A stretch of 64,000 nucleotides of DNA from Minisyncoccota bacterium (GCA_028711065.1 JAQTSY010000004.1:34522-98521), one strand, 5' to 3'. Counted from the first letter of the stretch, positions 9,875-59,189 are shown. Notes: generated by a model from the sequence alone, not told the origin. Made by a program: numbers and translations.

Positions 9875-11551
9875 TCAAGAAACCATTTTAATTTCGATCA
9901 CCCGCTGTAATTCGTCGAGAGAAGTTACCCCCTGAAGCACTTTGAGAACCCCATCCTGCTCCAGCGTGAGAAGTCCTTGCGGTGCTGCAGCAGCTCGGAT
10001 CTCCCGTTCGCTCGGATTTTCTTCAACCACTTTTTCAATTGCCTGATCGGTAAGTATTGCTTCATAAATTCCGACGCGTCCTTTGTAGCCAGTGCCATTG
10101 CACTTCTCACAGCCGACCGCTTCCCAGATTGTTTTCGCTTCCATTTTATACTCGGGAAGGACAATAGTAGACAAAATATATTTGATAAGTTTTTCGGTCT
10201 CTCCAGTAAGAGGGATTTCTTTTTTGCAATTTTGGCAGAGCGTTCGTACAAGTCTTTGGGCCAGGGCGATGTTGATTGCTGACGTGAGGATCTTTGGATT
10301 CACTCCGAGGTCTATGAGGCGCGGGAACGAACCCGCTGCATCGTTGGTGTGAAGTGTCGAGAAAACAAGGTGCCCTGTGAGAGCGGAATTGATAGCGATC
10401 TCTGCGGTTTCGGAATCTCGAATTTCACCAACCATGATGACATCCGGGTCCTGGCGGAGTGCAGAACGGAGTCCTGTGAGGAACGTATATCCTTTTTCAG
10501 CATCGGTCTGCGTCTGGACGATTCCAGGAAGATGATATTCAATCGGATCTTCAATAGTGATAATTTTTATTTCAGGCGTGTGGATTTTTTTGAGGAATGA
10601 ATAGAGAGTTGTCGTCTTTCCAGAACCTGTCGGACCAGTGGTGAGTATCATTCCGTTCGGCTTTGAAATTTCGTGTTCGAGAAGCTTCAAAAGTTTCGGT
10701 GAAATGCCAAGCTCTTCCATCGGCACATTAATTGTTTTTGGATTCAAGATTCGAAGAACGATAGACTCGCTGTATGCCCCAGGGAGGATTGAGGTTCGAA
10801 TTTCGATATTCTGCGCGTCGATGTGCACGCTAAATCGTCCGTCTTGGGCGTTTGCTTTAATGTTGAGTTTTAATCCGGAGAGAAGCTTTACTCGAGAGAG
10901 TAGGAGAGAGTAGGTATCCCGATCAAAAGTTAAAATGTCGAGAAGCACTCCGTCCAATCGATAGCGAAGTCGCACATACCCTTCTTCCGGTTCGAGATGG
11001 ATATCAGACGCAGAGGTTGCCAGCGCTCCGGCAACGATGATTTCGAGGATCTTTGAAATGCGGTAGCCTTTTTTTTGCACTAGCACGTCTTCAATGAGTT
11101 TCTTTACATCTTCGATCGTTTTGACATTTTTCAGGATTGAAGCAATTTCTTCATTTGAAATATCAAGTGCTCCTGCTTTCGTTTCGTAGGCGAATGAAAT
11201 ATCTTTATATCGCGACCAGGCTTTTTCAAGACTTGCGGTCGAGACGAGGAATGATGTGCATTCGTAGGCCCTGGCCTTAAGTTCACTTATGGTTTCAACA
11301 GTTTTTTCGTTTGCCGGAGTAAGCACGGCGATCTGAAGTTTTTTCCCGACCATATTAAAAATTGCCATCTTTGCTTCTCTAGCTTTTTCTTCCGGAATGA
11401 TGCCTAAAGCGTCGGTATTGATTGAGATTGCAGAGAGATCGAGATACCCTATGCCATATTTTTCTGAGAGTTCCTGTGCCAGTTCCTCTTCCTCTTTTTT
11501 GTAGAGTTCTTTTACTTTCTTTTTTTGTTTGTCGTCATCAAATTGAACCAT
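9875..11551 (-). CDS. pilB: type IV pilus assembly ATPase (GspE/PilB family)
   Basis: 558 aa; Walker A GPTGSGKTTT, Asp box, His box (TGHLVFSTLHTN), C-terminal tetracysteine zinc motif (CQNCKK...CEKCNGTGYKGR). Confidence 0.9.
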   Translation of the reverse strand: MVQFDDDKQKKKVKELYKKEEEELAQELSEKYGIGYLDLSAISINTDALGIIPEEKAREAKMAIFNMVGKKLQIAVLTPANEKTVETISELKARAYECTSFLVSTASLEKAWSRYKDISFAYETKAGALDISNEEIASILKNVKTIEDVKKLIEDVLVQKKGYRISKILEIIVAGALATSASDIHLEPEEGYVRLRYRLDGVLLDILTFDRDTYSLLLSRVKLLSGLKLNIKANAQDGRFSVHIDAQNIEIRTSILPGAYSESIVLRILNPKTINVPMEELGISPKLLKLLEHEISKPNGMILTTGPTGSGKTTTLYSFLKKIHTPEIKIITIEDPIEYHLPGIVQTQTDAEKGYTFLTGLRSALRQDPDVIMVGEIRDSETAEIAINSALTGHLVFSTLHTNDAAGSFPRLIDLGVNPKILTSAINIALAQRLVRTLCQNCKKEIPLTGETEKLIKYILSTIVLPEYKMEAKTIWEAVGCEKCNGTGYKGRVGIYEAILTDQAIEKVVEENPSEREIRAAAAPQGLLTLEQDGVLKVLQGVTSLDELQRVIEIKMVS

Positions 11552-11810
11552 GACAGCTTTAGTGTATCGTTTTTCCTGTCTAAAACAAAGAAAAAGATTC
11601 TCTTGACTTTCTGTTTATTAATGATATAAGATATTCTTAGGACTAGTCATCGAGAAGAATATCTTTTTGCGACATCGTTCGAACGTCATGAAAACCTTCG
11701 GTTTTCGCGTCGCTTCTCACTTGTCGCAATAAATCATCCAGACTAAAAAACCAAGGAGCGAATCCGTGCGGATTCCCTTAAAGCATTTGCACATCACATT
11801 GGAGGCGATC

Positions 11811-12215
11811 ATGTCTGCTCACGGCGGAGGCGGAAGTCACAAATCCTCCGGTGGTGGTGGAGGAGGAGGTGGGGGAAGTGGAGGAAGTCCTGGCATTGGA
11901 CTCGTTGCATTTTTTATCGTGGTCCCGATACTTCTCTTCAGTAGTTGGCGTGGGAAAGGGAAACCTTCTCTCCCACCAACACCAGTTGAAGAAAGTGTTC
12001 AAACTGAAGGGGATGAAGGATCTGAAGTGGCCACTCCAGAGCAGAGTACGCCTGAACCCTCTCAAATCCCGGAAGAATCTCTTGCGCAAGGTGATTTGAG
12101 ATACGGCCGAAATAGTTCGGTGGGCTCGAGGCCTCCGCAGATTACCCTTGAAAATGGGGCGGAAGTAAAAAAGTTCTATAGGCAAGAATTAGAACGGCTG
12201 CGTCAGAGACGATAG
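11811..12215 (+). CDS. glycine-rich single-pass membrane protein (hypothetical)
   Basis: poly-Gly tract (GGGGSHKSSGGGGGGGGGSGGSPG), one TM helix, Pro/Glu-rich tail; GGAGG RBS before ATG 11811; alternative GTG 11766 is inside a GAATCC-GTGC-GGATTC hairpin. Confidence 0.5.
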   Translation: MSAHGGGGSHKSSGGGGGGGGGSGGSPGIGLVAFFIVVPILLFSSWRGKGKPSLPPTPVEESVQTEGDEGSEVATPEQSTPEPSQIPEESLAQGDLRYGRNSSVGSRPPQITLENGAEVKKFYRQELERLRQRR

Positions 12216-12218
12216 CCG

Positions 12219-12246
12219 AAAGGGAGCGATTTCGCTCCTTTTTTCT
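12219..12246 (+). terminator. intrinsic terminator
   Basis: GGAGCGATTTCGCTCC hairpin + TTTTTT. Confidence 0.75.
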
Positions 12247-12283
12247 TGCCCAATGGTGTCATTTTTTGAAAACACAATGCCTA

Positions 12284-12311
12284 TTGACTTTTCCGTACGA
12301 AGTGCTATAAT
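12284..12311 (+). promoter_or_regulatory. sigma70-like promoter TTGACT-16-TATAAT for GC-rich gene
   Basis: near-consensus hexamers; followed by 5'UTR hairpin and AAAAGGAGA RBS before ATG 12406. Confidence 0.55.
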
Positions 12312-12405
12312 TGCACACAGACAGTGAAGAATCCTCAAGGCAGTCTCACTGCGAGATTGTGAGGGCAACTCTTCGTTGATAATCCAGGGAAAAGGAGAAT
12401 GTGTT

Positions 12406-13362
12406 ATGGCGATTTCCGCCGGAGAAAAAGCTCGGCTTCAGGGTCTGCTCGCGACCGCTAATACGCGTCGCGCAGCACTGCCGGGGGAGCTGACGGCCAA
12501 GGCTACGGCCTTTCAGACTGCCGAAAGCAATCTGACGACAGCCGAAGCCGCCGTGGTGACAGCGCAGACCGCGGTCACAGCGGCTGCCGGTTTGCCCGCG
12601 TTGCCGGCCGCTCAGGCCGATTTGACTGCGAAGACGGCCGCTCGCGATACCGCCAGAGCGGCGCGTGATACCGCGAAGACGGAGCACGAAGCCAAGGAGC
12701 GCGAGGTCTTGGACAACGAGACCGAGGTCGCGGGCCTGGAACACCAACTGAAGGCTCCGTGGCGTCAGAAGCTCGAGAAGTACGGCTGGATGGCCGGAGC
12801 CGCTGCGATCGTCCTGCTCATTTTGTTTTTCACGCGCGGCAGTTCGCCGGACGCGAAGGGCAAGGACAACGTGGCGGAGCAGGGCGCAACGACCAACAGC
12901 GCGGCACCGAAGGGCGCTGACGCTTCGACGGTGAACCAGGACATCTCGCTCAAGGTGTCGAAGGACAAGGATGGCCGCACGATTATCGTCGTCGACAATC
13001 CGACCGACAAGGTTCCGTTTCCGCAGCACGGAAAGAAGGACGGCGATCTCATCGTGACTCCGTCGGAGAACAACACGGGCGTCGCACTCCAGGGCCAAAG
13101 CGCTTCAAACGCGACGGCGACCAGGGAAATGGTGCTGACTTTGGACGATCTGTCCCAAGCCAACCAGAGCACCCAAGGCTGGAAGAGTGATGCTGACAAG
13201 AGCATCGAGCGGAGCCGGGACATGTTGCGGTGGATGAAAAACGAATACGATCCGCAGCGGCTCCAGGAGCACAAAAGGATGCTTCAGTTGAAGTATCCGT
13301 CGCCCGGAACGGACGATAGGGACGTCACAATAACCTTCCCAGGAGACAAGCCGGCCAAATAA
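12406..13362 (+). CDS. GC-rich hypothetical membrane protein: Ala-rich coiled-coil N-domain, TM helix, extracytoplasmic C-domain
   Basis: very high GC and GC3 compared with flanks; Ala/Thr-rich heptad-like N-terminus, TM WMAGAAAIVLLILFF; C-terminal motif ATREMVLTLDDLSQANQST shared with next gene. Confidence 0.6.
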   Translation: MAISAGEKARLQGLLATANTRRAALPGELTAKATAFQTAESNLTTAEAAVVTAQTAVTAAAGLPALPAAQADLTAKTAARDTARAARDTAKTEHEAKEREVLDNETEVAGLEHQLKAPWRQKLEKYGWMAGAAAIVLLILFFTRGSSPDAKGKDNVAEQGATTNSAAPKGADASTVNQDISLKVSKDKDGRTIIVVDNPTDKVPFPQHGKKDGDLIVTPSENNTGVALQGQSASNATATREMVLTLDDLSQANQSTQGWKSDADKSIERSRDMLRWMKNEYDPQRLQEHKRMLQLKYPSPGTDDRDVTITFPGDKPAK

Positions 13363-13377
13363 GCGCTGGCACATGGT

Positions 13378-13427
13378 ACAAAGAGGGAGAGAAAAGAGGC
13401 GGGGACACAATCTGGTGTCCCTTTTTT
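13378..13427 (+). repeat. copy 1 of duplicated 3' module (terminator GGGACAC-AATCTG-GTGTCCC + T-run)
   Basis: ACAAAGAGGGAGAGAAAAGAGGCGGGGACACAATCTGGTGTCCCTTTTTT; ~48/50 identical to 14484-14532. Confidence 0.85.
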
Positions 13428-13598
13428 CGTGCCTTTTGTCACTTCCACCCCTTGCTACCGTCTTCTTATGCGGACACTTGAAGCACTTGACAAAGCGGTG
13501 CTTTGTGTGCTATCATTAAGCCCAGCAGTACCTTGTGTTGTAGGAAGTTCAACCGTCAATCAGCCGCTTTGAGGCGGCAAACTTGGGGAGGATAGACG

Positions 13599-14456
13599 AT
13601 GAAAAACATCGTGTTGGTGATCGTGTTGTGCTTCGTGGCCAGTGTGGTCGCGGGCGAAGCCGGTGTGCCCACTCCGCAGCGCCAGAGTGATGAGTCGAAG
13701 TGGCAGGAGGCCACGGAGGCCGCCGCTACGCAGGAGTTGGTGTTGACGTTGAAAGACGTCAAGGACGCCAACGAAAACACCGCGCGGTACAAGCGGGAGC
13801 TTGAAGAGGAGCGGGGAAAGAAAGCCCGCTCCCATCATCATTCGGCCCGAGTGGATTCGGATGAAGGCGAGAGGACGAGTGAGGAGAGTGCGAAGAACAC
13901 TTCCTCCCGTCCGCCGTGCCCGCATCCCGGATACATCTGGGTGGAATCCGATGATGGCGGAAGCTGGCAACGGCCTCCGTGCGATGTTCCGGGCGGCGTC
14001 TGGTATAAAAACGCTGGCCGGTGGGGTTTGCTCCCTAAGGGCGCGACTCTGGGGAATGACGGCGTTTGGGAAAGCGTTCCGCATAAAGCGGCACCTGAAG
14101 GAAATCATACTTCGGTGAAGGTCCAATCACGCTACCCTGCGCTACCGCCCGGCCAATTCTACGGCGAGATTTGCCACAAGTGTGGACATGTCGTAGAAGT
14201 TGGGCAAGCATGCGGGTGCGAAACGGCCCACCACACGGTGAAGAAAGAAGTTGAAATAATCTACACCAACCCGGACCACTGCCCAGTGCCAGGATACTAC
14301 TGGCATCGCAAGCACAATATGTGGGAATGCCCACCCTCTCCAGGACCTGGGTGGGAGTGGAACCCGCGGGGATGGTATCAGACTCGTGATACCAGCCGCG
14401 AAGGGATCTACAGGCGGTGGGGAGTAAACTTCGGCTTCCAATACAACGGACGCTGA
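13599..14456 (+). CDS. GC-rich secreted Cys/Trp-rich hypothetical protein, paralogous motif to upstream gene
   Basis: signal peptide MKNIVLVIVLCFVASVVA; motif ATQELVLTLKDVKDANENT; two tandem CPxPGY(I/Y)W...PPC...PG..W modules; GGGGAGG RBS; TTGACA..TATCAT promoter at ~13486-13520. Confidence 0.6.
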   Translation: MKNIVLVIVLCFVASVVAGEAGVPTPQRQSDESKWQEATEAAATQELVLTLKDVKDANENTARYKRELEEERGKKARSHHHSARVDSDEGERTSEESAKNTSSRPPCPHPGYIWVESDDGGSWQRPPCDVPGGVWYKNAGRWGLLPKGATLGNDGVWESVPHKAAPEGNHTSVKVQSRYPALPPGQFYGEICHKCGHVVEVGQACGCETAHHTVKKEVEIIYTNPDHCPVPGYYWHRKHNMWECPPSPGPGWEWNPRGWYQTRDTSREGIYRRWGVNFGFQYNGR

Positions 14457-14483
14457 AGCGCACAAGGAAATTTGTACAAATAA

Positions 14484-14532
14484 ACAAAGAATGAGAGAAA
14501 AGAGGCGGGGACACAATCTGGTGTCCCTTTTT
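14484..14532 (+). repeat. copy 2 of duplicated 3' terminator module
   Basis: ACAAAGAATGAGAGAAAAGAGGCGGGGACACAATCTGGTGTCCCTTTTT. Confidence 0.85.
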
Positions 14533-14586
14533 CATTGCCAATTTTTTTGTATTGCCCGGCGCTTTTTAAAAGGATAGACTTTCATT

Positions 14587-15027
14587 ATGAAAAAGGAGAG
14601 CAGAAGTTTAAAAGAGACGGAAACAGTGGCGCATGATTTTGTATCGAAGCTACAAGCCACCAACTACAAGCCAAAAGCTACCCTTGTCGGTCTTTATGGA
14701 GATCTCGGCGCAGGCAAAACCACTTTCATGAAAGGCATAGCAAAAGCTTTCGGAATAGAAGAAGATGTAACGAGTCCGACTTTTGTTATAGAAAAGATTT
14801 TTCGATTGAAAGAAAAGTCGTTTGAACATTTGATTCATGTTGATGCATATCGATTGGAAAGCTCTGGCGAGTTACTAAATCTCGGCTGGAAAGAAATTTC
14901 TGAAAATCCGAAAAATATTATTTTCATAGAGTGGCCGGAAAAAGTGTCTGACATTTTGCCCAAAGAAATGCAGCATATTTATTTTAAACACGTAAACGAA
15001 AATGCCCGAGAAATTTCTTTTGAATAA
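14587..15027 (+). CDS. tsaE: tRNA threonylcarbamoyladenosine biosynthesis ATPase TsaE
   Basis: 146 aa; P-loop LYGDLGAGKTTFMKG. Confidence 0.8.
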   Translation: MKKESRSLKETETVAHDFVSKLQATNYKPKATLVGLYGDLGAGKTTFMKGIAKAFGIEEDVTSPTFVIEKIFRLKEKSFEHLIHVDAYRLESSGELLNLGWKEISENPKNIIFIEWPEKVSDILPKEMQHIYFKHVNENAREISFE

Positions 15028-17461: not shown

Positions 17462-18163
17462 ATGTTTGAGAAACAACCAAATGAAGTGCCTTTTTCTGGG
17501 CTAAAAAAAACAGGAAAGAAAGGAAAATATTTCGAAATTAAATCTGTAGAAACAGATCCTGGTTTCGTTGTGAAAGAGGCAAAAACAAAATGGGGATTAT
17601 TTGAAACTGCTGGTGTACATCCTCTGAATGATATAGATAGAGCAAAAGCCGATCTGGATATTATGAAAGAAGATTTCGGTGAATTTATTCCGGGAACTAG
17701 CCTTGTTGTGGGGAAAAATGAAAAGGGTGAAAAAACATTCTATGCTGTCCAAGAGAAAATTGAGGGACAGGCTTTAGATAAGGTTGGCAATAATGAAGAA
17801 GTCCGTCAGCAATTAGAAAGTTTTTTTGACAAAGTAAGAGAAGCATTCAAGAAACACTTGTTTTATTATAAAAATTCCAGACAACCCCAGTCTATTTTCC
17901 CAGACATGAAAGGCTGGAATTTCATTTTTGGGACTAATCCAAAGAGGGGAGAAACAAAATCAAGATTGTATTTTATTGATACCTACCCCGTTGAGGGGGC
18001 TGATTTCAACGATGATTTTATAAATAGATATATACCGACGATTGTAAAACCAACTTTCCCAAGCGAATACTGGCCTGTCATAGATGACTTCAGAATGAAA
18101 TTAGCTGAAGAAATAAAACAACATATAAAAGCACACTCGGACGAAATACCTCGAGTAAATTAA
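17462..18163 (+). CDS. hypothetical protein with protein-kinase-like catalytic-loop motif
   Basis: 233 aa; DMKGWN (DxKxxN) followed by LYFIDTYP in place of DFG; no other recognisable domain. Confidence 0.3.
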   Translation: MFEKQPNEVPFSGLKKTGKKGKYFEIKSVETDPGFVVKEAKTKWGLFETAGVHPLNDIDRAKADLDIMKEDFGEFIPGTSLVVGKNEKGEKTFYAVQEKIEGQALDKVGNNEEVRQQLESFFDKVREAFKKHLFYYKNSRQPQSIFPDMKGWNFIFGTNPKRGETKSRLYFIDTYPVEGADFNDDFINRYIPTIVKPTFPSEYWPVIDDFRMKLAEEIKQHIKAHSDEIPRVN

Positions 18164-21152: not shown

Positions 21153-21241
21153 TTTTCGATCCCTGCCCGCATCGTGCTTCGGCACGATGCTTGGGCGCAC
21201 AACAAAAAATCCGCTTTCGCGGAAATTTTTTGTTGTGCGCC
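21153..21241 (-). repeat. tRNA-Lys trailer palindrome element (inverted tRNA 3' fragment + inserted hairpin + central hairpin)
   Basis: TTCGATCCCTGC|hairpin GCATCGTGCTTCGGCACGATGC|TGGGCGCACAAC + AAAAAATCCGCTTTCGCGGAAATTTTTT + GTTGTGCGCC overlapping tRNA 3' end; same architecture as 38887-38976. Confidence 0.7.
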
Positions 21242-21308
21242 CAGCAGGGATCGAACCTGCGACCTTCTCCTTAAAAGGGAGCTGCTCTACCAGCTGAGCT
21301 ATGGGCGC
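21236..21308 (-). tRNA. tRNA-Lys(TTT)
   Basis: GCGCCCATAGCTCAGCTGGTAGAGCAGCTCCCTTTTAAGGAGAAGGTCGCAGGTTCGATCCCTGCTGGGCGCA; cloverleaf, anticodon loop CTTTTAA. Confidence 0.9.
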
Positions 21309-21385
21309 AATTGAAAATACCAGCAAAATATAACAGAGAAAACGATATTTGAAAAGACTTTGGATTTAACGTATGCTTCGGAAAT

Positions 21386-37923: not shown

Positions 37924-38658
37924 TTACGTATTTAAGACTTGGAGTCCCCAGAAGCAGTGATACTTGAGAGCGCTTCTCTGGAAGAACTCCAGCCGAAGGC
38001 CGTGAGTTGTCCAACGGAGAGCGGGTACTCGGTTGTCTGCAACCCATGAGCCCATAGCGTACATCGAGCACTCTTTCGGTCTTCGTATCCCGCGGAAGTA
38101 AAAGTAAAGCTCCCGTGCGAGAAGTTCAGTGAGTGTCACTTCGTGTCCCTCCGTCATGGATGCGGGCCATGCGTCTGATTCCTTCTGATCCACTTGAATC
38201 ATATAGGTCTTTCCTTCGCGGAACCGATTTCCGCCCAGGGTGCCCTGTGTCGGTTCCGGTTTATACGTCATCGGGAAGAATTTTTTACAGCACTCCTGAA
38301 GATCAGCCTCAAACCGGGTCTGATTTTTCACTTCAGGAATAAAGATCGAATTCTTCGCGTTACAACTGTGTTTCTCCAGACCAGGAAAAGCGACCTGCCT
38401 TTGGAGGAGGAACTTGTAAAACCGGACCCAGTGGGCGACTTCGTTCGCCACTGTCGGCGGATGAAAAAGCACTTTCTGCACCTCGTCTGCAAGGCACTCT
38501 TTTCCTCCCGTATCTTCCACCCACCACGAGGCTGTCTTTTCAGACAGGTTGAGCGGAACCGATCCTGCAAGCGCAGTATTCAGAAGCTTGATGCTTCTTG
38601 CAGTAAGCGTACCGCCTCTTTGAGACACGGCAGATCGGTTCTCCCCATGCGTACTCAT
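37924..38658 (-). CDS. GC-elevated hypothetical protein
   Basis: 244 aa, no recognised motif; composition differs from flanks; lies between two tRNAs. Confidence 0.45.
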   Translation of the reverse strand: MSTHGENRSAVSQRGGTLTARSIKLLNTALAGSVPLNLSEKTASWWVEDTGGKECLADEVQKVLFHPPTVANEVAHWVRFYKFLLQRQVAFPGLEKHSCNAKNSIFIPEVKNQTRFEADLQECCKKFFPMTYKPEPTQGTLGGNRFREGKTYMIQVDQKESDAWPASMTEGHEVTLTELLARELYFYFRGIRRPKECSMYAMGSWVADNRVPALRWTTHGLRLEFFQRSALKYHCFWGLQVLNT

Positions 38659-38886: not shown

Positions 38887-38976
38887 GGGCTTCGAATCCC
38901 TCACACGATGCGCCCCCGCGCATCGTTAGGGCGCACAATAAAAAATCCGCCTTCGCGGAAATTTTTTATTGTGCGC
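38887..38976 (-). repeat. tRNA-Val trailer palindrome element (same family as tRNA-Lys trailer)
   Basis: GGGCTTCGAATCCCTCA|hairpin CACGATGCGCCCCCGCGCATCGT|TAGGGCGCACAAT + AAAAAATCCGCCTTCGCGGAAATTTTTT + ATTGTGCGCC overlapping tRNA 3' end. Confidence 0.7.
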
Positions 38977-39044
38977 CCTGAGGGATTCGAACCCCCGACC
39001 TTGTCAGTGTAAATGACCTGCTCTACCAACTGAGCTAAGGGCGC
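38972..39044 (-). tRNA. tRNA-Val(TAC)
   Basis: GCGCCCTTAGCTCAGTTGGTAGAGCAGGTCATTTACACTGACAAGGTCGGGGGTTCGAATCCCTCAGGGCGCA. Confidence 0.88.
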
Positions 39045-39162
39045 AAAAGCCCAGAAACTTAAACTGCTTTAAGTTTTTGCGGACTTGTGCGAGCCGGAGC
39101 CATATTTTTCTAACAAGAAAAAAAGGCGAGGCGTGGTCAGGGAATTTTGGTTGCGACGGCAA

Positions 39163-39215: not shown

Positions 39216-39962
39216 TTACGCCTTCTTTTGAATCCACCTTGCTACTATTTCATTCGCTTCTTTTTGAAGCTCTGGATACTTCGAAAGACTATGCGGGGCA
39301 TTTTTTATAAGCGCGTGTTCGAGTTGTGTCAGATCCGGTACTGCATTTTTGAAGTTAAGAATTGTCTGGTGGGGGACCATTTCATCTTTTTCCGACTCGA
39401 TAATAAGAATTTCTCCGGGAAATGTATGAATGGCTCGCAAAGCGAGTGTGGATTCAGAATCTCTTTTGTGTTCACGCCATTCATTTATTTTCGCTTGCTC
39501 GAAGATCATTCCTTTGGGCTTTTCGAATGTTTCGTCGGGATAATCTGCCGGAGCTCGGAGTATTATGAAATTCAGATTTCTTTTTTGGCTAAGGAGGAGC
39601 GCGAGGTATCCTCCAAAAGAGCTTCCGCTTACTCCAATTTTTTCTGTATCTACTTCAGACCGTTTCGCAAGGAAATCATATCCGAGGATTACATCATCGA
39701 GAAAATCTTTGCGGGAGAGGGAATTTTTATCACCCGCGCTTTTCCCATGCCCTCGTAAATCTAAAGTGAGACAGATGAAGCCGAATTTCTCCGCAAGCAT
39801 TTTTGCAGTATCAAACATCCTCTCTTGGGTGCTGTTCCATCCATGAAGAAGCAAAAGAGCAGGCCTTTTTGTTCCTTTTTCCTTCGGGAGGAAGACATTT
39901 CCTTCAAGTGTGTAGCCATTTCCCTTAATCTCTCTTCTTTCCATATTTTGATTGTAACTCAC
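39216..39962 (-). CDS. alpha/beta hydrolase (dienelactone hydrolase/S9-like)
   Basis: LLLLHGWNST...GVSGSSFGGY (GxSxG), C-terminal His. Confidence 0.7.
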   Translation of the reverse strand: MSYNQNMERREIKGNGYTLEGNVFLPKEKGTKRPALLLLHGWNSTQERMFDTAKMLAEKFGFICLTLDLRGHGKSAGDKNSLSRKDFLDDVILGYDFLAKRSEVDTEKIGVSGSSFGGYLALLLSQKRNLNFIILRAPADYPDETFEKPKGMIFEQAKINEWREHKRDSESTLALRAIHTFPGEILIIESEKDEMVPHQTILNFKNAVPDLTQLEHALIKNAPHSLSKYPELQKEANEIVARWIQKKA

Positions 39963-40170
39963 GAAATAGATTGACCCTAATTTTTCTTTGAAGAAAGTTG
40001 ATTTTAGCTAGTATATAAGCCGTATTTTTCAGCTTTTTATGCTTGACATTTGGGTCATAATATGCTATCATTATACCAGAACCTGCAATCCTTTTTATCT
40101 GTCTGTAGTCGGCCTGCGTGGCTGATGAGGATGATTGGGACCAGGGAGACCTTTGTGAGGAGTGTGAGTT

Positions 40171-41175
40171 ATGGTGCAGCAAATTGCAGTTCGGCCTATC
40201 GATGTCGTTGTGGAAGCCCTCAGGGCTGCCCGCAAAGCCGATGGTGCCGTGAATGAGGTCGGTTCGCCGATCGAAGAGCGGAGCTGGAACACTGATGTGG
40301 AGGGGGGCGCGACGTGGAAATCCATGTTCGGCAACCTCCATTTGCAGGTTTCCGGGTTCCGGCTCGAATTCCCGGAAGCCCAAGCCCAAAACATGTGGGC
40401 GGCGGCGAATATCGACAGGGGCGACAGGCCCTCGGCGGTTCGCGTGTTGCTCAGCATGCAGGCTGTGGAAGGCGCGAAGGTGCTCCACTGCGCCGCAGGT
40501 GAAGTCACTGATGTGACGGCTGGCAGTATGCCGGATCTCGTCGTGCCGGTGGTCTACGATGGTGCGGCGCCCCGCACGCGGGAGAAGGACAAGGACAACA
40601 TCGATATCGTGATTCTGCAACGGAACGGAATGTTCGTTCAGTTGCAGGTCTCGGTCATCACGCGCGGCGGAGTGTTCTACGTCGGAGTCCAGGAGATTTT
40701 CGCGGGTCAGGTCGTTCGGACCAATGCCTCGAAAGTCTTGAAGCTTGGACTCAAGAAGGAGACGATCAACGGCGCACAGGTGGGACTCATCGTCCCGTTG
40801 TTTGAGGGCAACGCCTACCCCGGCGCCGATTACTTGAATGTCTTCCCCCGCATGGGACCGAAGGTGATCAAGTACGCTGTTGCGCACGAGATGTGCGTTC
40901 CGCTCTCCGAGTGCGTCGTTGCCAAGTGGGCGCCGGAAGAGACGCCGTTGCCGCCGAATTTGAAGGCGGAAGACGGCTGGATGAGGGCGGTGGTCCGCTC
41001 CTACAACTTGGTCACTGGTTGCGGCCATCTGTTGTGCGACGACGGCGTGGATTGCTTCCTTCATTTCAGTGTGATCGGCGGGGATTTCCCTTCCGTTCCG
41101 CCCATGAAGGCCGTGGCGGTCCAGCACTGGTTGCGCGACAATCGTCGCAAGGCGCTCAAGTTCCAGAGCCTGTAA
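40171..41175 (+). CDS. GC-rich hypothetical protein with C-terminal cold-shock-like OB domain
   Basis: 334 aa; C-terminal GWMRAVVRSYNLVTGCGHLLCDDGVDCFLHFSVIGGDF resembles CspA core (KGxVKWFN..GFGFI..DG.DVFVHFSAI); TTGACA-17-TATCAT promoter 40053-40087, GAGGAG RBS; own terminator; long antisense ORF 39925-41241 judged artefact. Confidence 0.5.
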   Translation: MVQQIAVRPIDVVVEALRAARKADGAVNEVGSPIEERSWNTDVEGGATWKSMFGNLHLQVSGFRLEFPEAQAQNMWAAANIDRGDRPSAVRVLLSMQAVEGAKVLHCAAGEVTDVTAGSMPDLVVPVVYDGAAPRTREKDKDNIDIVILQRNGMFVQLQVSVITRGGVFYVGVQEIFAGQVVRTNASKVLKLGLKKETINGAQVGLIVPLFEGNAYPGADYLNVFPRMGPKVIKYAVAHEMCVPLSECVVAKWAPEETPLPPNLKAEDGWMRAVVRSYNLVTGCGHLLCDDGVDCFLHFSVIGGDFPSVPPMKAVAVQHWLRDNRRKALKFQSL

Positions 41176-41204
41176 CGCACAGGAAAACATCAGCAAATAA
41201 TATG

Positions 41205-41234
41205 GCGGAAACATGAAAAGGTTATGTTTCCGCC
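41205..41234 (+). terminator. intrinsic terminator GGCGGAAACAT-GAAAAGGTT-ATGTTTCCGCC + TTTT
   Basis: 11-bp stem right after 40171-41175 stop. Confidence 0.8.
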
Positions 41235-41295
41235 TTTTCATTTGTCCGGATTTTTTCGATGTCGAGAAGACAATTATTTGTTACTATTAAACACA

Positions 41296-48960: not shown

Positions 48961-49467
48961 ATGGACAACGGGAGGGCAGGGATTCTGGCAGAGAGAGCTA
49001 AAAGGCTTCTGGAAGGAAGTGGAAGCCGAGTAAGCTTTGTCGAAAGCCAGGGGGCGAATATGAGGATTTTTCGCTTCATTAACGTGCAGGCGAAGTGGGT
49101 GATTGTTGGGATTCACTTCGTGGGCGACCAAATCATCGAGGAGTTGATCGTGGTGAAAGATGGATTCGATCGCTCCCGTGGAGACAATTGCTTGGGGGAT
49201 CGGCTTCTGGCGGCGCGCGAAGTAACAAGCGGCGGCCTCGTCGACCTTTCCTCACTCGTGAAGGTGCCAAAGGCTCTGCGCTACAGGAAGGCGCTTGAGC
49301 TGTTGAACAAGGTCGCCAGGATGATCCACAATTTTCCGCATCTTCTAGCGGGGTGCTTGCGAAAGAACCCGCTCCGGTATGAGTCTGCGGATAATTGCGT
49401 AGCGCGCAAGAGGCGCCACCGTCGGCATGTTGGTCGCATCACCTCGCCGGCTTACGCCACCTGCTAA
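48961..49467 (+). CDS. GC-rich hypothetical protein
   Basis: 168 aa; TTGACT-17-TACAAT promoter 48862-48895, AAGGAGGG RBS; composition unlike flanks. Confidence 0.45.
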   Translation: MDNGRAGILAERAKRLLEGSGSRVSFVESQGANMRIFRFINVQAKWVIVGIHFVGDQIIEELIVVKDGFDRSRGDNCLGDRLLAAREVTSGGLVDLSSLVKVPKALRYRKALELLNKVARMIHNFPHLLAGCLRKNPLRYESADNCVARKRRHRRHVGRITSPAYATC

Positions 49468-56490: not shown

Positions 56491-56570
56491 GTAACGAGTA
56501 GGGTAGAGAGCGGAAGGTAAGGCAAAAACCTTGAATTTTGCCAACAGTTTTACTGTGGGAGGGCATTTCA

Positions 56571-57548
56571 ATGTCGGACTGTAAATTCGTAACGCTCCTT
56601 GAAGAGCGTTGGAAGAAGGGCAAATTCGCCTGCGTCGGGCTTGATTCGGAGCTCGGAAAGATCCCGGATTGCCTTAAGATGCAGACGAGTGATTCCACGA
56701 GTGCTGTCGTGAAATTCAATACGGAAATCATTAAAACCACGGCGGAACATGTCTGTTGCTTCAAGCCAAACGGTGCGTTCTATCTCGGTGAAGGTACCGC
56801 TGGAATGACAGCCCTTGATCGCACATTCCGGATAGCGGGGCAGTTGGCACCCTCAATTCCCCTCATCCTTGACCTCAAGGTGGGGGATATCGGCAACACC
56901 AATCGCGGCTACTTGAAGTTGCTGCTCGAACATCTCTGCGGCAACGCGATCACAGTGAACCCTTATGTCGGGGCGCACTGGGATCCTGATCCGACAAAAC
57001 ACGATGGCCTCCAGATTTTTCTCGAGGAGAAAGATATCGGCGTCTTCGTGCTCTGCCGCACATCGAACAAAGGCGCGACAGCCATTCAGGAAAGGCCTGT
57101 CATAGTGGGCGAAGCGGAATTTGAACACATGCAAGCTCTGGCGACTGCTGTTGATTGGAAAGGCACTGCCGGAGGATACATCATGCCGTTCTACCAGTAC
57201 ATCGCGCTCCTTGTGGATCGCGTCTGGAACAGGCACGGCAACTGCGCGCTGGTCGTCGGCGCCAATCATCCCAAACAACTCGCGGCTGTGCGCGAACTGT
57301 GCCCGAAGATACCGATCCTCATTCCTGCTTTTGGCAAACAGATCCAAGGCGAGGAAAACATCGTCAAGCAGACGGTCTTTGCCGGGCTCGATGCTTCCGG
57401 CGGCGGCATCATCTGCAACAATTCGCGCAATATCATCTTCGCCTCTGGCGGGGAAAATTATGCCGAGGCGGCGGGTGAAGCGGCCAAGAAGTTCAACGAT
57501 GAGATCTCAGGCTTCGTTTGCGACTGGCACGATGCGGCGAAGCAGTAA
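56571..57548 (+). CDS. pyrF: orotidine-5'-phosphate decarboxylase (long/type-2 form), GC-rich
   Basis: CVGLDSEL, LILDLKVGDIGNT matches DxKxxDIxxT catalytic motif; GGGAGGG RBS before ATG 56571. Confidence 0.75.
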   Translation: MSDCKFVTLLEERWKKGKFACVGLDSELGKIPDCLKMQTSDSTSAVVKFNTEIIKTTAEHVCCFKPNGAFYLGEGTAGMTALDRTFRIAGQLAPSIPLILDLKVGDIGNTNRGYLKLLLEHLCGNAITVNPYVGAHWDPDPTKHDGLQIFLEEKDIGVFVLCRTSNKGATAIQERPVIVGEAEFEHMQALATAVDWKGTAGGYIMPFYQYIALLVDRVWNRHGNCALVVGANHPKQLAAVRELCPKIPILIPAFGKQIQGEENIVKQTVFAGLDASGGGIICNNSRNIIFASGGENYAEAAGEAAKKFNDEISGFVCDWHDAAKQ

Positions 57549-57622
57549 CCCACTGGCTCACCCCGCCCGCGGCATTGTGCCGACGGGCGGAGGGCCGAAC
57601 ATAGCGAAAGGAGGAAATTCCA

Positions 57623-58303
57623 ATGCCGTCCAATAAGACAGAGGAACAATGGATGAAGGAGTTCACGCAAAGGGGGTCGCTCTGGATCCATGATGGAAAT
57701 CCGAAACGGCCTCATGCTCTTCTCACGAGCGGCGGACACAGCAACGGTTTCTTCAACGCAATCGAGAGCATCAAAGATCCGGATCTACTCGATGAAGCCT
57801 GTGATGACCTGCTCGATCTCCTCGATGAGGAGAAAGTGGTTGATAAGTCCGAAATGGTCATCGGCTCCGCGCTCGGCGCTGTTACCATTGCGTATCAGAC
57901 TGCAAAACAGCTTGTTGGTGTGAGCGCCGGCTGGACGGAAGAAGTGATCCTGGATCCGCCTGAGGATGCACCGGAGGGCGTAAAGGGAATAAAGATCATG
58001 GAGCTGAAACGCTTCGACATTAAGCCCGGAACGAAAATCCTGGTCGTCGAAGACGTGATGACAAGCGGTGCCACCACGGAGAAAACCATCGCCGGCATCA
58101 AGAAGAAGAACGGCATCGTCTTGCCGCAGATCGCCGTGCTTTTCAACAGGTCCGGCAAGACGCATCTCGGCGAGTACGAGATCGTCGCACTCATGACGCA
58201 TCCGCTCGAGAATTGGATGTCGCAGGACTGCCCTCTGTGCAAGAAGGGCTCGGAAGCAGTTCGTCCGAAGGCGAACTGGGCGAAGCTGACGGCAGCCTAC
58301 TAA
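57623..58303 (+). CDS. pyrE: orotate phosphoribosyltransferase, GC-rich
   Basis: LTSGGHSNGFFN (KSG..S.YFFN OPRT signature), PRPP-binding ILVVEDVMTSGATT. Confidence 0.7.
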   Translation: MPSNKTEEQWMKEFTQRGSLWIHDGNPKRPHALLTSGGHSNGFFNAIESIKDPDLLDEACDDLLDLLDEEKVVDKSEMVIGSALGAVTIAYQTAKQLVGVSAGWTEEVILDPPEDAPEGVKGIKIMELKRFDIKPGTKILVVEDVMTSGATTEKTIAGIKKKNGIVLPQIAVLFNRSGKTHLGEYEIVALMTHPLENWMSQDCPLCKKGSEAVRPKANWAKLTAAY

Positions 58304-58330
58304 ATAAGTACAGACAGATAAAGGATAGTG

Positions 58331-58365
58331 GCGCGAGGTGTAGAATCTACATCTTGCGCTTTTTT
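58331..58365 (+). terminator. intrinsic terminator after pyrE
   Basis: GCGCGAGGTGTAGAATCTACATCTTGCGC + TTTTTT. Confidence 0.8.
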
Positions 58366-58388
58366 ATTTGTCTGAATTTTGCTAGGGT
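58356..58388 (+). repeat. copy 1 of duplicated intergenic module GCGCTTTTTTATTTGTCTGAATTTTGCTAGGGT
   Basis: ~30/33 identical to 59157-59189; each follows a different terminator hairpin. Confidence 0.8.
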
Positions 58389-58392
58389 GTGA

Positions 58393-59106
58393 GTGGTGGT
58401 CGCGCCGGTTTCTGTGCTCATTTCGAGTACGCTGGTTCGCCAAACCTTTCACACTGGATTAGAGGGGGTTCATTTGAGAAAACAAATTGCTGAAGACAGA
58501 AGTCCGCCGGCGTCATCGCTACTGCAGATTGGTGCAGGGGATGACGCACTCGACGTTCTCAGCCTTTCTGGCGGGATATCGGGAGATCTCTTCCAGGACT
58601 TCGTCAGGGCAGGGATGTTCCCACACGTCATGAAGCATTTCGCCGCACGCTTGGTAGAGAATTCCGCGTTTGAGGACATTCGCGGGAGTCTCGATTGTCT
58701 CTGTGCCGTGTCTGTGGAGAGCATAAAGTTTGCCACCCACATCAGTGCACTCTGTGACTGTCGCGACATTTATCTCGAGCACGAAGAGAGGGATGTTGAC
58801 ACGAACATACAGCGTGAGGCATCAATGCTCGTGGTCGGACGGCACAAAATAGAGAGGGGAATACGCTACGGACTTGTCGACAACGTGCTCAATTTCTCGA
58901 CTGTCGACGAGGCTGCAAGGCTCATCATGAGTAAGGGTGGCATTGTCGTTGGGTTGTTTGGAATCCTGAATTGTTCGCCACGCTTTATCACCAGCTATGT
59001 GTCGCAAGGTGGCGCCATCAACCTGCCCGTAATCGCGGTGAAGCATGAGCCGAATCCCATAGAGGTGCCGTGGCAGAGTAAAGACAGGAACGTGAGGAGA
59101 ATGTAG
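58393..59106 (+). CDS. GC-rich hypothetical protein, possible type-I phosphoribosyltransferase-like fold
   Basis: YGLVDNVLNFSTVDEAARLI resembles PRPP-binding motif (hydrophobic4-D-D/N-x-x-T/S); possible TTG start at ~58474 after GAGGGGG RBS. Confidence 0.35.
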   Translation: MVVAPVSVLISSTLVRQTFHTGLEGVHLRKQIAEDRSPPASSLLQIGAGDDALDVLSLSGGISGDLFQDFVRAGMFPHVMKHFAARLVENSAFEDIRGSLDCLCAVSVESIKFATHISALCDCRDIYLEHEERDVDTNIQREASMLVVGRHKIERGIRYGLVDNVLNFSTVDEAARLIMSKGGIVVGLFGILNCSPRFITSYVSQGGAINLPVIAVKHEPNPIEVPWQSKDRNVRRM

Positions 59107-59133: not shown

Positions 59134-59189
59134 GCAGAGTCGCTCGCCCGGACTCTGCGCTTTTTTATTTGTTCGAATTTTGCTAGAGT
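59134..59189 (+). repeat. terminator hairpin + copy 2 of duplicated intergenic module
   Basis: GCAGAGTC-GCTCGCCCG-GACTCTGC then GCGCTTTTTTATTTGTTCGAATTTTGCTAGAGT. Confidence 0.8.

Follow-up and report, generated by a model that had tools for sequence, protein, structure and literature searches.

A hypervariable three-gene block encoding putative surface proteins occupies the slot between pilB and tsaE in one clade of Paceibacterota

A stretch of 64 kb (referred to here as the window) from a groundwater-type metagenome-assembled genome of "Candidatus Pacebacteria" (Paceibacterota, candidate phyla radiation [CPR]) was analyzed around two GC-rich open reading frames (ORFs) that lie between pilB and tsaE. 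A preliminary description of the same DNA had placed these ORFs at 12406-13362 (ORF A) and 13599-14456 (ORF B), and both were found at those coordinates; at NCBI they are PHV93_02560 and PHV93_02565, on a 99.9-kb contig. Together they make up the right-hand two-thirds of a three-gene block, G-A-B, which fills the interval between the divergently transcribed pilB and tsaE-polA. The long antisense ORFs called in this interval were artifacts of base composition, as had been proposed: all of them had TTG starts, none had a Shine-Dalgarno sequence, and all were rich in Arg, Leu, and Ser. The two-gene view missed the membership of G in the variable block, the hypervariability of the genes beside conserved regulatory DNA, and the covariation of a segment shared by A and B within each genome. 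The features of the locus, all on the plus strand, were as follows.

11811-12215, plus strand: gene G, which opens the variable block and encodes a predicted small membrane protein whose Gly-rich N terminus (MSAHGGGGSHKSSGGGGGGGGG) is followed by a single transmembrane (TM) helix, an acidic linker, and a C-terminal helix that is basic
12222-12247, plus strand: putative intrinsic terminator of G, with a T tract 3' of GGGAGCGATTTCGCTCC, read from the sequence
12284-12311, plus strand: putative promoter of A, TTGACT, 16-nt spacer, and TG-n-TATAAT (11/12 consensus positions, extended -10 TG)
12322-12378, plus strand: two-tier stem-loop near the 5' end of the A leader (minimum-free-energy fold)
12406-13362, plus strand: gene A, 318 amino acids (aa), with an N-terminal helical hairpin, a predicted TM helix at about residues 128 to 146, and a C-terminal domain that is probably extracellular
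13096-13200, plus strand: shared segment in A, residues 231 to 265, delimited by BLASTP against B
13378-13433, plus strand: terminator/3' untranslated region (UTR) module 1, in which a leader rich in purines (ACAAAGAGG..AAAGAGGCGGGG) precedes a hairpin of 8 bp and a T tract
13487-13516, plus strand: putative promoter of B, TTGACA, 18-nt spacer, and TG-n-TATCAT (11/12 consensus positions, extended -10 TG)
13563-13592, plus strand: small hairpin (GCCGC-TTTGAG-GCGGC) and Shine-Dalgarno sequence (GGGGAGGA) of B
13599-14456, plus strand: gene B, 285 aa, in which a predicted signal peptide and an N-terminal helix are followed, after a linker, by Cys/Trp/Pro modules, a CxxC..CxC knuckle, and the C terminus W.VGFGFQY.G
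13704-13808, plus strand: shared segment in B, residues 36 to 70
14484-14539, plus strand: terminator/3' UTR module 2, with the palindrome TTTGTACAAA upstream of the module

The block was found in the same site in related genomes. The gene order ruvC-yebC-ruvB-pilB-G-A-B-tsaE-polA was present in locus L005 (GCA_028714635.1) and the order pilB-G-A-B-tsaE-polA in L009 (GCA_028710915.1), with partial orders in L004 (G-A-B-tsaE) and L007 (A-B-tsaE-polA); L006 and L008 were short contigs carrying further B alleles. The four loci with flanking context (L004, L005, L007, and L009) came from species-level relatives (TsaE, 66 to 83% identical), and the block was absent only from relatives whose PilB was ≤67% identical. 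Between the window and L005, the proteins of the flanking genes were 94% (PilB), 97% (PolA), and 83% (TsaE) identical and those of the block 37% (G), 28% (A), and 46% (B) identical. Backbone DNA of the same pair was 82 to 87% identical (blastn). Within the block, outside the 5' part of G, only noncoding DNA aligned with L005, namely 12215-12311 (76%), which comprises the G terminator and the A promoter, and 13402-13659 (81%), which comprises the A module, the B promoter, the B leader, and about 60 nt of signal peptide codons.

Gene G shared this pattern. Counterparts occurred in the same place in L005 (137 aa), L009, and L004, which were all of the loci reaching that far, and were 35 to 47% identical over the aligned part, compared with 93 to 94% for PilB. 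Only the part of the G DNA encoding the N terminus aligned with L005 (11752-11902, 74%), and the G terminator, which lies inside the 76%-identical block, was kept in L005, L009, and L004. Homologs of A were 28 to 37% identical among the window, L005 (311 aa), L009 (363 aa), and L007, while that of L004 aligned only locally.

The history of the site was examined in 80 loci of distant Paceibacteria (L011 to L090), which were fetched with PilB and were 54 to 67% identical in that protein. The divergent arrangement of pilB and tsaE-polA was found in 59 of the 80, and neither G, A, nor B was detectable in any of these 59 loci. The gap between pilB and tsaE ranged from 18 bp to 4.8 kb and was less than 160 bp in 14 of the 59 loci, which makes the block an insertion relative to an ancestral adjacency of pilB and tsaE. 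Filled slots held mostly unrelated small ORFs with N termini resembling signal peptides or lipoprotein signals, and among 33 informative loci, this cargo was richer in GC than its own genome in 27 (sign test, P = 3e-4). Hidden Markov models (HMMs) of G, A, and B gave no convincing match among 167 slot ORFs of the distant relatives. The slot beside pilB has thus long served as a site, or hot spot, for secreted-protein genes, and G-A-B is its filling in one clade. The insert of one distant locus, L060, contained an ORF resembling a lipoprotein gene (9-581) and a coiled-coil ORF (757-1578); the latter matched the A-family HMM weakly (E value of 3e-4 in the 167-sequence database) and may be remotely related to A or no more than an analog of it.

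The protein encoded by A was modeled with AlphaFold2 in single-sequence mode as two long helices (residues 5 to 59 and 66 to 143), with a predicted local distance difference test (pLDDT) score above 90 over roughly residues 11 to 110. The hairpin continued into a hydrophobic helix at about residues 128 to 146, in agreement with the description of A as a coiled-coil protein with a TM segment. A lacked a signal peptide, and its charge distribution weakly favored a topology with the N terminus inside and the C terminus outside. A Foldseek comparison of A with the PDB returned only generic helical hairpins (Vipp1/PspA, AhlB, colicin, and BAR-like proteins; E values above 0.04) and was uninformative as to fold identity.

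The protein encoded by B was likewise as described, with a signal peptide and two tandem Cys/Trp modules (CPxPGYxW..W..PPxP..W; residues 106 to 134 and 228 to 256); three modules occurred in some homologs. A long N-terminal helix (residues 29 to 81), which contains the segment shared with A, was followed by a low-complexity linker. The C terminus W.VGFGFQY.G was conserved in the family, the CxxC..CxC knuckle was present in four or five of the seven family members, and the signal peptide (..VVAGE) was kept by all of them. Because the signal peptide is kept in all members, the start of B was placed at ATG 13599 and not at the TTG at codon 51 from which NCBI derives a protein of 235 aa, a model that is short by 50 codons (13599-13751). 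A B homolog in L009 (JAQTTF010000031.1, 4076-4498) is annotated with 171 aa, although its open frame extends to 312 aa and includes a signal peptide. Two truncated database gene models, that of B at NCBI and that of its homolog in GCA_028710915.1, were thereby corrected.

A and B belong to new families, putatively membrane anchored in the case of A and secreted in the case of B. Nothing significant was found for either protein in Pfam, NCBIfam, PHROGs, or PADLOC, and a sequence search of the PDB gave no match. Neither Pfam nor NCBIfam identified an SLH domain or another recognized surface-layer (S-layer) or cell wall-binding domain, and literature searches found no published description of either family. 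The B family comprised seven members and was reached only by an exhaustive HMMER search of 1.84 billion representatives, which returned six true relatives (25 to 45% identity) and one low-complexity false match. When 5.8 billion proteins were searched by word index, A and B each retrieved nothing but their own record, and the same kind of search with a B-family profile returned only two members. Scanning with the B-family profile yielded only L010 in GTDB genomes, on the same contig as L009, and no match in JGI metagenomes. No match to A or B was found by tblastn in 50,697 phage records, by blastn (DNA similarity only) in plasmids, or in scans of IMG/VR viral contigs. The two families are therefore new and restricted to a handful of groundwater- or cave-type Paceibacterota.

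Signals for separate transcription and translation were found at A and B. The sites upstream of both genes fit sigma-70-type promoters. At A, the -35 and -10 hexamers, the TG, and much of the spacer were invariant in four loci; at B, the hexamers were nearly invariant in six loci and lay within the block that is 81% identical to L005. A palindrome (ACAAAGC-ggt-GCTTTGT), conserved as ACAAAG-N5-CTTTGT, overlapped the -35 hexamer and spacer of B. Ribosome-binding sites were AAGGAG, 8 nt 5' of the ATG, for A and GGGGAGGA before the ATG for B. The stem-loop of the A leader begins a few nucleotides past the expected transcription start, and per-sequence folds gave the same architecture of outer and inner stems in the window, L005, L009, and L004, with differing inner-stem sequences. 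At B, most loci had a hairpin of differing sequence just 5' of the Shine-Dalgarno sequence. The promoter and leader of A bore no relation to those of B. Of the proposal that each ORF has its own promoter, 5' UTR hairpin, and strong ribosome-binding site, the promoters and ribosome-binding sites held up; the hairpins were present but were no more stable than shuffled sequence (z scores of -0.8 and -0.15). Rfam covariance models gave no match across 11500-14700 at E values of up to 1.

Each ORF was followed by a nearly identical 3' module, as had been noted. The two modules were identical over 40 nt (13387-13426 and 14493-14532) and matched at 91% over 56 nt; they were the only copies in the 64 kb, and none of 100 shuffles gave any match. 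The stem of 8 bp, with five GC pairs followed by T5-6, fits an intrinsic (Rho-independent) terminator directly after the stop codon. In 11 modules from six loci, the purine-rich leader, the T tract, and a short trailer were kept, and the stems varied in sequence and length but always paired (folds of -16 to -32 kcal/mol). The 12-mer of the leader, AAAGAGGCGGGG, was confined to this clade's loci except for a single off-strand match among the 80 other loci, and an exact-pattern scan of GTDB genomes for the module gave 0 matches. The two modules of a genome were identical only in the window genome and probably in L006; elsewhere the stems after A and B differed, and stem types were shuffled between the two positions, so that, for example, the stem after A in L009 resembled the one after B in L004, and the stem after B in L009 resembled that of the window. 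The 50-bp module is thus the genes' own conserved terminator/3' UTR, recently homogenized in this lineage.

Two other identities were considered for the module and rejected. A repetitive extragenic palindrome or an element like a miniature inverted-repeat transposable element did not fit a count of two copies in 64 kb, the absence of copies from the flanks of related loci, and a 12-mer confined to the cassette. A scar of cassette duplication or a mobile repeat did not fit a conserved terminator of the genes themselves or the unrelated promoters and leaders of A and B.

The hexamer ACAAAG/CTTTGT recurred at several of these sites, namely, in the palindrome of the B promoter (ACAAAGCggtGCTTTGT, 13490-13508), at the starts of both 3' modules (13378-13383 in the first), and beside the palindrome TTTGTACAAA past the stop codon of B (14472-14489), and could be a candidate binding site for a regulator.

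The jump in base composition between pilB and tsaE was borne out by GC content, by GC content at third codon positions (GC3), and by codon-usage distance, and a uniform GC3 across the region was excluded. The window had a GC content of 44% overall, and the local value rose from about 0.43-0.47 to 0.57-0.66 across 12350-14450. GC contents at codon positions 1, 2, and 3 were 0.61, 0.48, and 0.75 in A and 0.60, 0.49, and 0.66 in B, compared with 0.55, 0.35, and 0.44 in pilB, 0.46, 0.31, and 0.36 in tsaE, and 0.53, 0.31, and 0.46 in polA; the backbone GC3 was about 0.42. The preliminary description spoke of G or C at nearly every third position, of which the enrichment stands and the "nearly every" does not, the actual share being 66 to 75%. 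In codon-usage distance, A and B ranked second and third among the 58 ORFs of the window. The enrichment was not confined to this genome. All A and B alleles of seven loci had a GC3 of 0.58 to 0.76 along the whole gene (0.63 to 0.75 for the A alleles across species), and flanking tsaE, polA, and pilB had values of 0.29 to 0.49. GC3 was not raised in G (0.30 to 0.47), though G is as variable as A and B.

Codon identity at residues conserved between species was used as a measure of synonymous turnover. The same codon was used at 51 to 67% of identical residues in pilB and polA and at 44 to 66% in tsaE, with 41 to 49% expected by chance. In A and G, same-codon use was at the chance level; the synonymous sites of A thus matched those of the homologs in the slot no better than chance (pooled, 172/420; P = 4e-6 against a backbone-like value of 0.52). 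In B, it was at chance or slightly higher. The synonymous sites of the block have turned over more than those of the backbone, without decay of GC3. By a rough two-state estimate of our own, a neutral relic even of a donor with a GC3 of 0.95 should now sit near 0.46. The best reading is that GC3-rich codon usage is a stable, clade-wide property of the A and B coding sequences, and not a mark of recent import. Its persistence may reflect an upholding force (selection on the mRNA or, in a locus that recombines, biased gene conversion), alleles that lived elsewhere for most of their history, or a same-codon test that overstates the divergence.

A local similarity between A and B was confirmed, and an absence of similarity between the two proteins was excluded: BLASTP aligned 35 residues, 15 of them identical (E value of 1e-5), and the rest of the two proteins showed no similarity. 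The proposal that A and B are paralogs or share a domain therefore stands for a shared, domain-sized segment and not for paralogy over the whole length, with only 35 to 55 aa aligning. Twelve segments were aligned, with both genes available in five genomes (the window, L005, L009, L007, and L004). In all five, the best local alignment between A and B joined the C-terminal third of A to the N terminus of mature B. Segment identity between A and B of the same genome was 33, 54, 44, 27, and 46%, compared with means of about 19 to 20% for A-A, B-B, or A-B comparisons across genomes. The same-genome partner was the best match in four of the five genomes, and the true pairing of A with B had the highest score of 120 permutations. 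Between species, few parts of either protein varied as much as the segment (20 to 23%). At identical residues of the segment, 34 of 83 codons were the same, compared with 31 expected (P = 0.007 against a backbone-like value of 0.55). This match at the chance level indicates that the likeness is kept at the protein level and not by recent gene conversion, which was rejected as the cause of the shared segment.

Taken together, we lean modestly toward reading G-A-B as a long-standing, clade-specific, hypervariable surface-protein locus in which an anchor, A, and a secreted protein, B, coassemble through the shared segment. Behind this reading stand the observed synteny of the block, its hypervariability, the conservation of its regulatory DNA, the persistently high GC3, the match of the segment within genomes, and synonymous saturation. 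The block would fill a conserved surface-protein slot in one genus-level clade of Paceibacterota, each gene forming a transcription unit of its own that runs from a sigma-70 promoter close to consensus, through a structured leader with a strong Shine-Dalgarno sequence, to a conserved terminator module. The three genes would encode a cell-envelope complex and would be expressed independently and probably strongly. G and A would be anchored in the membrane, A as a bitopic protein whose single TM helix connects a helical hairpin in the cytoplasm to a C-terminal domain outside, and B would be secreted and held at the cell surface by A through a common self-associating segment. As in a pseudo-homo-oligomeric bundle, neither partner's copy of such a segment could diverge from the other's. 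The fast divergence could come from diversifying selection on exposed proteins that interact with hosts, phages, or neighbors or, alternatively, from old alleles exchanged by recombination in the conserved promoter and terminator arms.

Several points weigh against this reading. Topology, localization, coassembly, high expression, and selective cause are what we infer from the gene sequences, and AlphaFold2 confidence was low for B (pLDDT, 49) and for the ectodomain of A. The statistics of the shared segment are small, only five genomes carrying both genes, and identical segments are not a strict prediction of direct coevolution in a heterodimer; the same pattern would result if both segments bound a common third partner or if old gene conversions had given way to purifying selection. 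The same-codon test is diluted by alignments of low identity. The reading does not account for the high GC3, and G is equally variable without a GC3 excess, so that variability and GC3 are not simply coupled. Finally, the pyrF/pyrE-like and other GC3-rich genes of the window have the same codon usage as A and B, which keeps an old foreign origin in play. These are 40171-41175, the pyrF/pyrE-like genes at 56.5 to 58.3 kb, 58393-59106, and 48961-49467, with codon usage similar to that of A and B (r of 0.6 to 0.9).

Such an origin, an old horizontal acquisition with incomplete amelioration, is the strongest of the alternatives, and we consider it less than probable but deserving of weight. The ancestor of the clade would have taken G-A-B, or A-B, from a very GC-rich donor, the genes would still be drifting toward the composition of the host, and the divergence of the proteins would reflect later relaxed or diversifying selection; this account is partly compatible with a surface complex. 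The slot is empty or differently filled in distant relatives, so that the block must have been inserted at some point, and slot cargo is GC-richer than its genome in most informative distant loci. A and B are codon-usage outliers and resemble GC3-rich genes, including the pyrF/pyrE-like pair, that were plausibly acquired by CPR genomes. However, no homolog was found outside the clade among the 1.84 billion representatives (B only), in the word-index database and phage records (A and B), or in plasmids (DNA only). The synonymous sites of A are saturated, yet its alleles keep a GC3 well above the rough estimate for a neutral relic, and G, in the same block, is not GC3 rich. Compositionally atypical, horizontally acquired genomic islands have been described in Patescibacteria (PMC12455944). 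The G-A-B block resembles them in its atypical GC content and in a slot content that varies between lineages and differs in lacking mobility genes and a donor, in its clade-wide synteny, and in being unameliorated despite synonymous saturation.

A bolder form of the surface-complex reading, which we hold to be unlikely, treats G-A-B as a polymorphic "lock-and-key" system of episymbiotic CPR bacteria. Lineage-specific assembly through the segment would set host or kin specificity, ancient alleles would be swapped as cassettes by way of the promoter and terminator arms, and GC-biased gene conversion or another locus-specific force would keep the coding DNA GC rich.

Targeted hypermutation of the coding DNA, by a diversity-generating retroelement (DGR) or another local mutator with a bias toward GC, is an improbable explanation. 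DGRs are common in CPR bacteria, and hypermutation would account for synonymous saturation and high GC3 together; both synonymous and nonsynonymous divergence exceed the backbone level, and divergence of the adjacent noncoding DNA does not. Against it, the 64 kb held no pair of template and variable repeats and no repeat of A or B coding DNA, and no reverse transcriptase was noticed among the part of the ORFs that was scanned. The variation spans whole genes and not a region of about 100 bp with adenine-specific changes, and G is hypervariable without a shift in GC3.

The preliminary description favored a recent horizontal island or a duplicated cassette in this genome, which we now regard as very improbable. 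The atypical GC content and codon usage and the direct repeats of 40 to 56 nt near the ends of both genes speak for it. Recent cargo is contradicted by deeply diverged alleles in the same site of the four related loci and by high GC3 in every allele. Moreover, no integrase, transposase, or other mobility ORF was found between pilB and tsaE, the closest tRNA to the block lies at 21.2 kb, and no flanking direct repeats of the kind left by mobile elements were found, the sole direct repeats being the two terminators, which lie inside the block and are conserved across species. No donor was found, nor were homologs in other lineages (1.84 billion representatives for B; the word-index database for A and B) or in the mobile elements searched (phages by protein, plasmids by DNA, and viral contigs). 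Duplication of a cassette is contradicted by the unrelated promoters and leaders of A and B and by the 35 to 55 aa shared at different positions of the two proteins; only the terminator is duplicated. A jump in GC content alone is insufficient to call a recent transfer.

We give still less credence to a remnant of a phage lysis or membrane cassette, with G resembling a holin and A and B resembling spanins. Residues 3 to 81 of B matched an Rz-like spanin family weakly (phrog_1152; E value of 0.044, 14.8 bits), and three small membrane or secreted proteins do stand in a row. Like Rz-like i-spanins, B has an N-terminal hydrophobic segment followed by a long helix. The match was not significant, however, and covered only the signal peptide and helix in the N-terminal 80 residues, beyond which B continues into Cys/Trp-rich modules that these spanins lack. 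There is no lysis context, with no endolysin or other phage gene nearby; neither the phage records nor the IMG/VR contigs gave a match; each gene has its own strong promoter; and the block is stably placed in several species, the trio not having been found in any phage or prophage.

Least credible of all is an assembly chimera in which GC-rich reads of another organism were joined into a Pacebacteria contig, for which one could cite the abrupt change in composition and a repeated module that could in principle cause misjoins and at which short-read contigs break exactly. Independent Logan assemblies from two sequencing runs contained a contig with pilB, G, and A joined (L001, 100% identical to the window) and contigs with B only, also 100% identical. 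These contigs end exactly in the repeated terminator module, as is expected of short-read assembly graphs. The intergenic DNA between A and B and the junction between B and tsaE were homologous to those of L005, L009, L007, and L004, assembled in the same order, so that, across the 40 identical nucleotides of the module, the placement of A ahead of B is backed by synteny in relatives. A misjoin at the island borders is therefore not supported.

Rapidly evolving surface-protein loci with conserved flanks are already a known kind. Streptococcal M/emm-like loci, pneumococcal PspA/PspC, and Wolbachia wsp are hypervariable surface loci at fixed positions with conserved flanks. The block resembles them in encoding putatively exposed or anchored proteins whose divergence far outpaces that of the genome, in coiled-coil content, in conserved regulatory and flanking DNA that could serve as recombination arms, and in alleles that look older than the backbone. 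It differs in that A and B have no sequence or domain relation to those proteins and no LPXTG, choline-binding, or other known anchor, in that two different proteins here carry a covarying segment, and in a stable GC3 excess of about 0.2 to 0.3 over the genome. New here, besides the two families, are a GC3 anomaly that persists and an identity-preserving covariation of two proteins that are otherwise unlike each other.

Genes for S-layer and other major surface proteins have consensus promoters, long structured 5' leaders that stabilize the mRNA, strong terminators, and poor conservation. A and B share with them a self-contained unit with a near-consensus promoter, a stem-loop in the 5' leader, a strong Shine-Dalgarno sequence and terminator, and high divergence; unlike them, A and B are small (285 to 318 aa) and have no SLH or other known S-layer domain. 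Matching variable regions also occur in polymorphic recognition pairs such as IdsD/IdsE of Proteus and TraA of Myxococcus. The analogy to A and B is functional, a lineage-specific variable region being matched between partners; there is no homology, and here the two partners, A and B, are similar in sequence.

CPR/Patescibacteria are believed to live attached to the cells of hosts, and the surface molecules that determine the choice of host are mostly unknown. The G-A-B locus is a concrete candidate for such molecules. The slot adjoining pilB holds secreted-protein genes across Paceibacteria, and in one clade it holds two new families that diverge an order of magnitude faster than the genome while keeping a matched segment. 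The locus also offers a natural case of what keeps a gene GC rich in an AT-rich genome after synonymous turnover, with biased gene conversion, selection on the mRNA, and repeated import as candidates.

A second self-contained, GC3-rich cassette without known relatives (an ORFan) was found at 40043-41234 on the plus strand. It comprised a putative promoter at 40043-40071 (TTGACA-17-TATCAT, 11/12 consensus positions), a leader of about 100 nt with the Shine-Dalgarno sequence GAGGAG, an ORF at 40171-41175, and a 13-bp terminator at 41204-41234. The ORF encodes 334 aa without a Pfam match, has a GC3 of 0.77, is the top codon-usage outlier of the window, and is correlated with B in codon usage (r = 0.90). 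A minus-strand ORF that overlaps it (39925-41241) is probably an artifact. Further GC3-rich genes (0.57 to 0.69) were located at 56538-59106 (plus strand), 48961-49467 (plus strand), and 37924-38658 (minus strand) and may be older horizontal acquisitions; in codon usage they are similar to A and B. Among these, 56538-57548 matched orotidine monophosphate (OMP) decarboxylase (pyrF-like) and 57623-58303 matched a phosphoribosyltransferase (pyrE-like); the remaining genes had no Pfam match. A T-rich repeat of 34 nt (58355-58388 and 59156-59189, 91% identical) flanked the GC-rich ORF at 58393-59106.

The interval between polA and a holA-like gene, 3 kb downstream of the block, was a second variable slot, with one ORF of 233 aa in the window (17462-18163) and genes for DUF4190, PycTM, and acetyltransferase proteins in L005 (13896-15427). 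A repeat of 118 nt (83% identical) at 21193-21310 and 38929-39046 comprised tRNA-Lys and tRNA-Val with a hairpin beside each.

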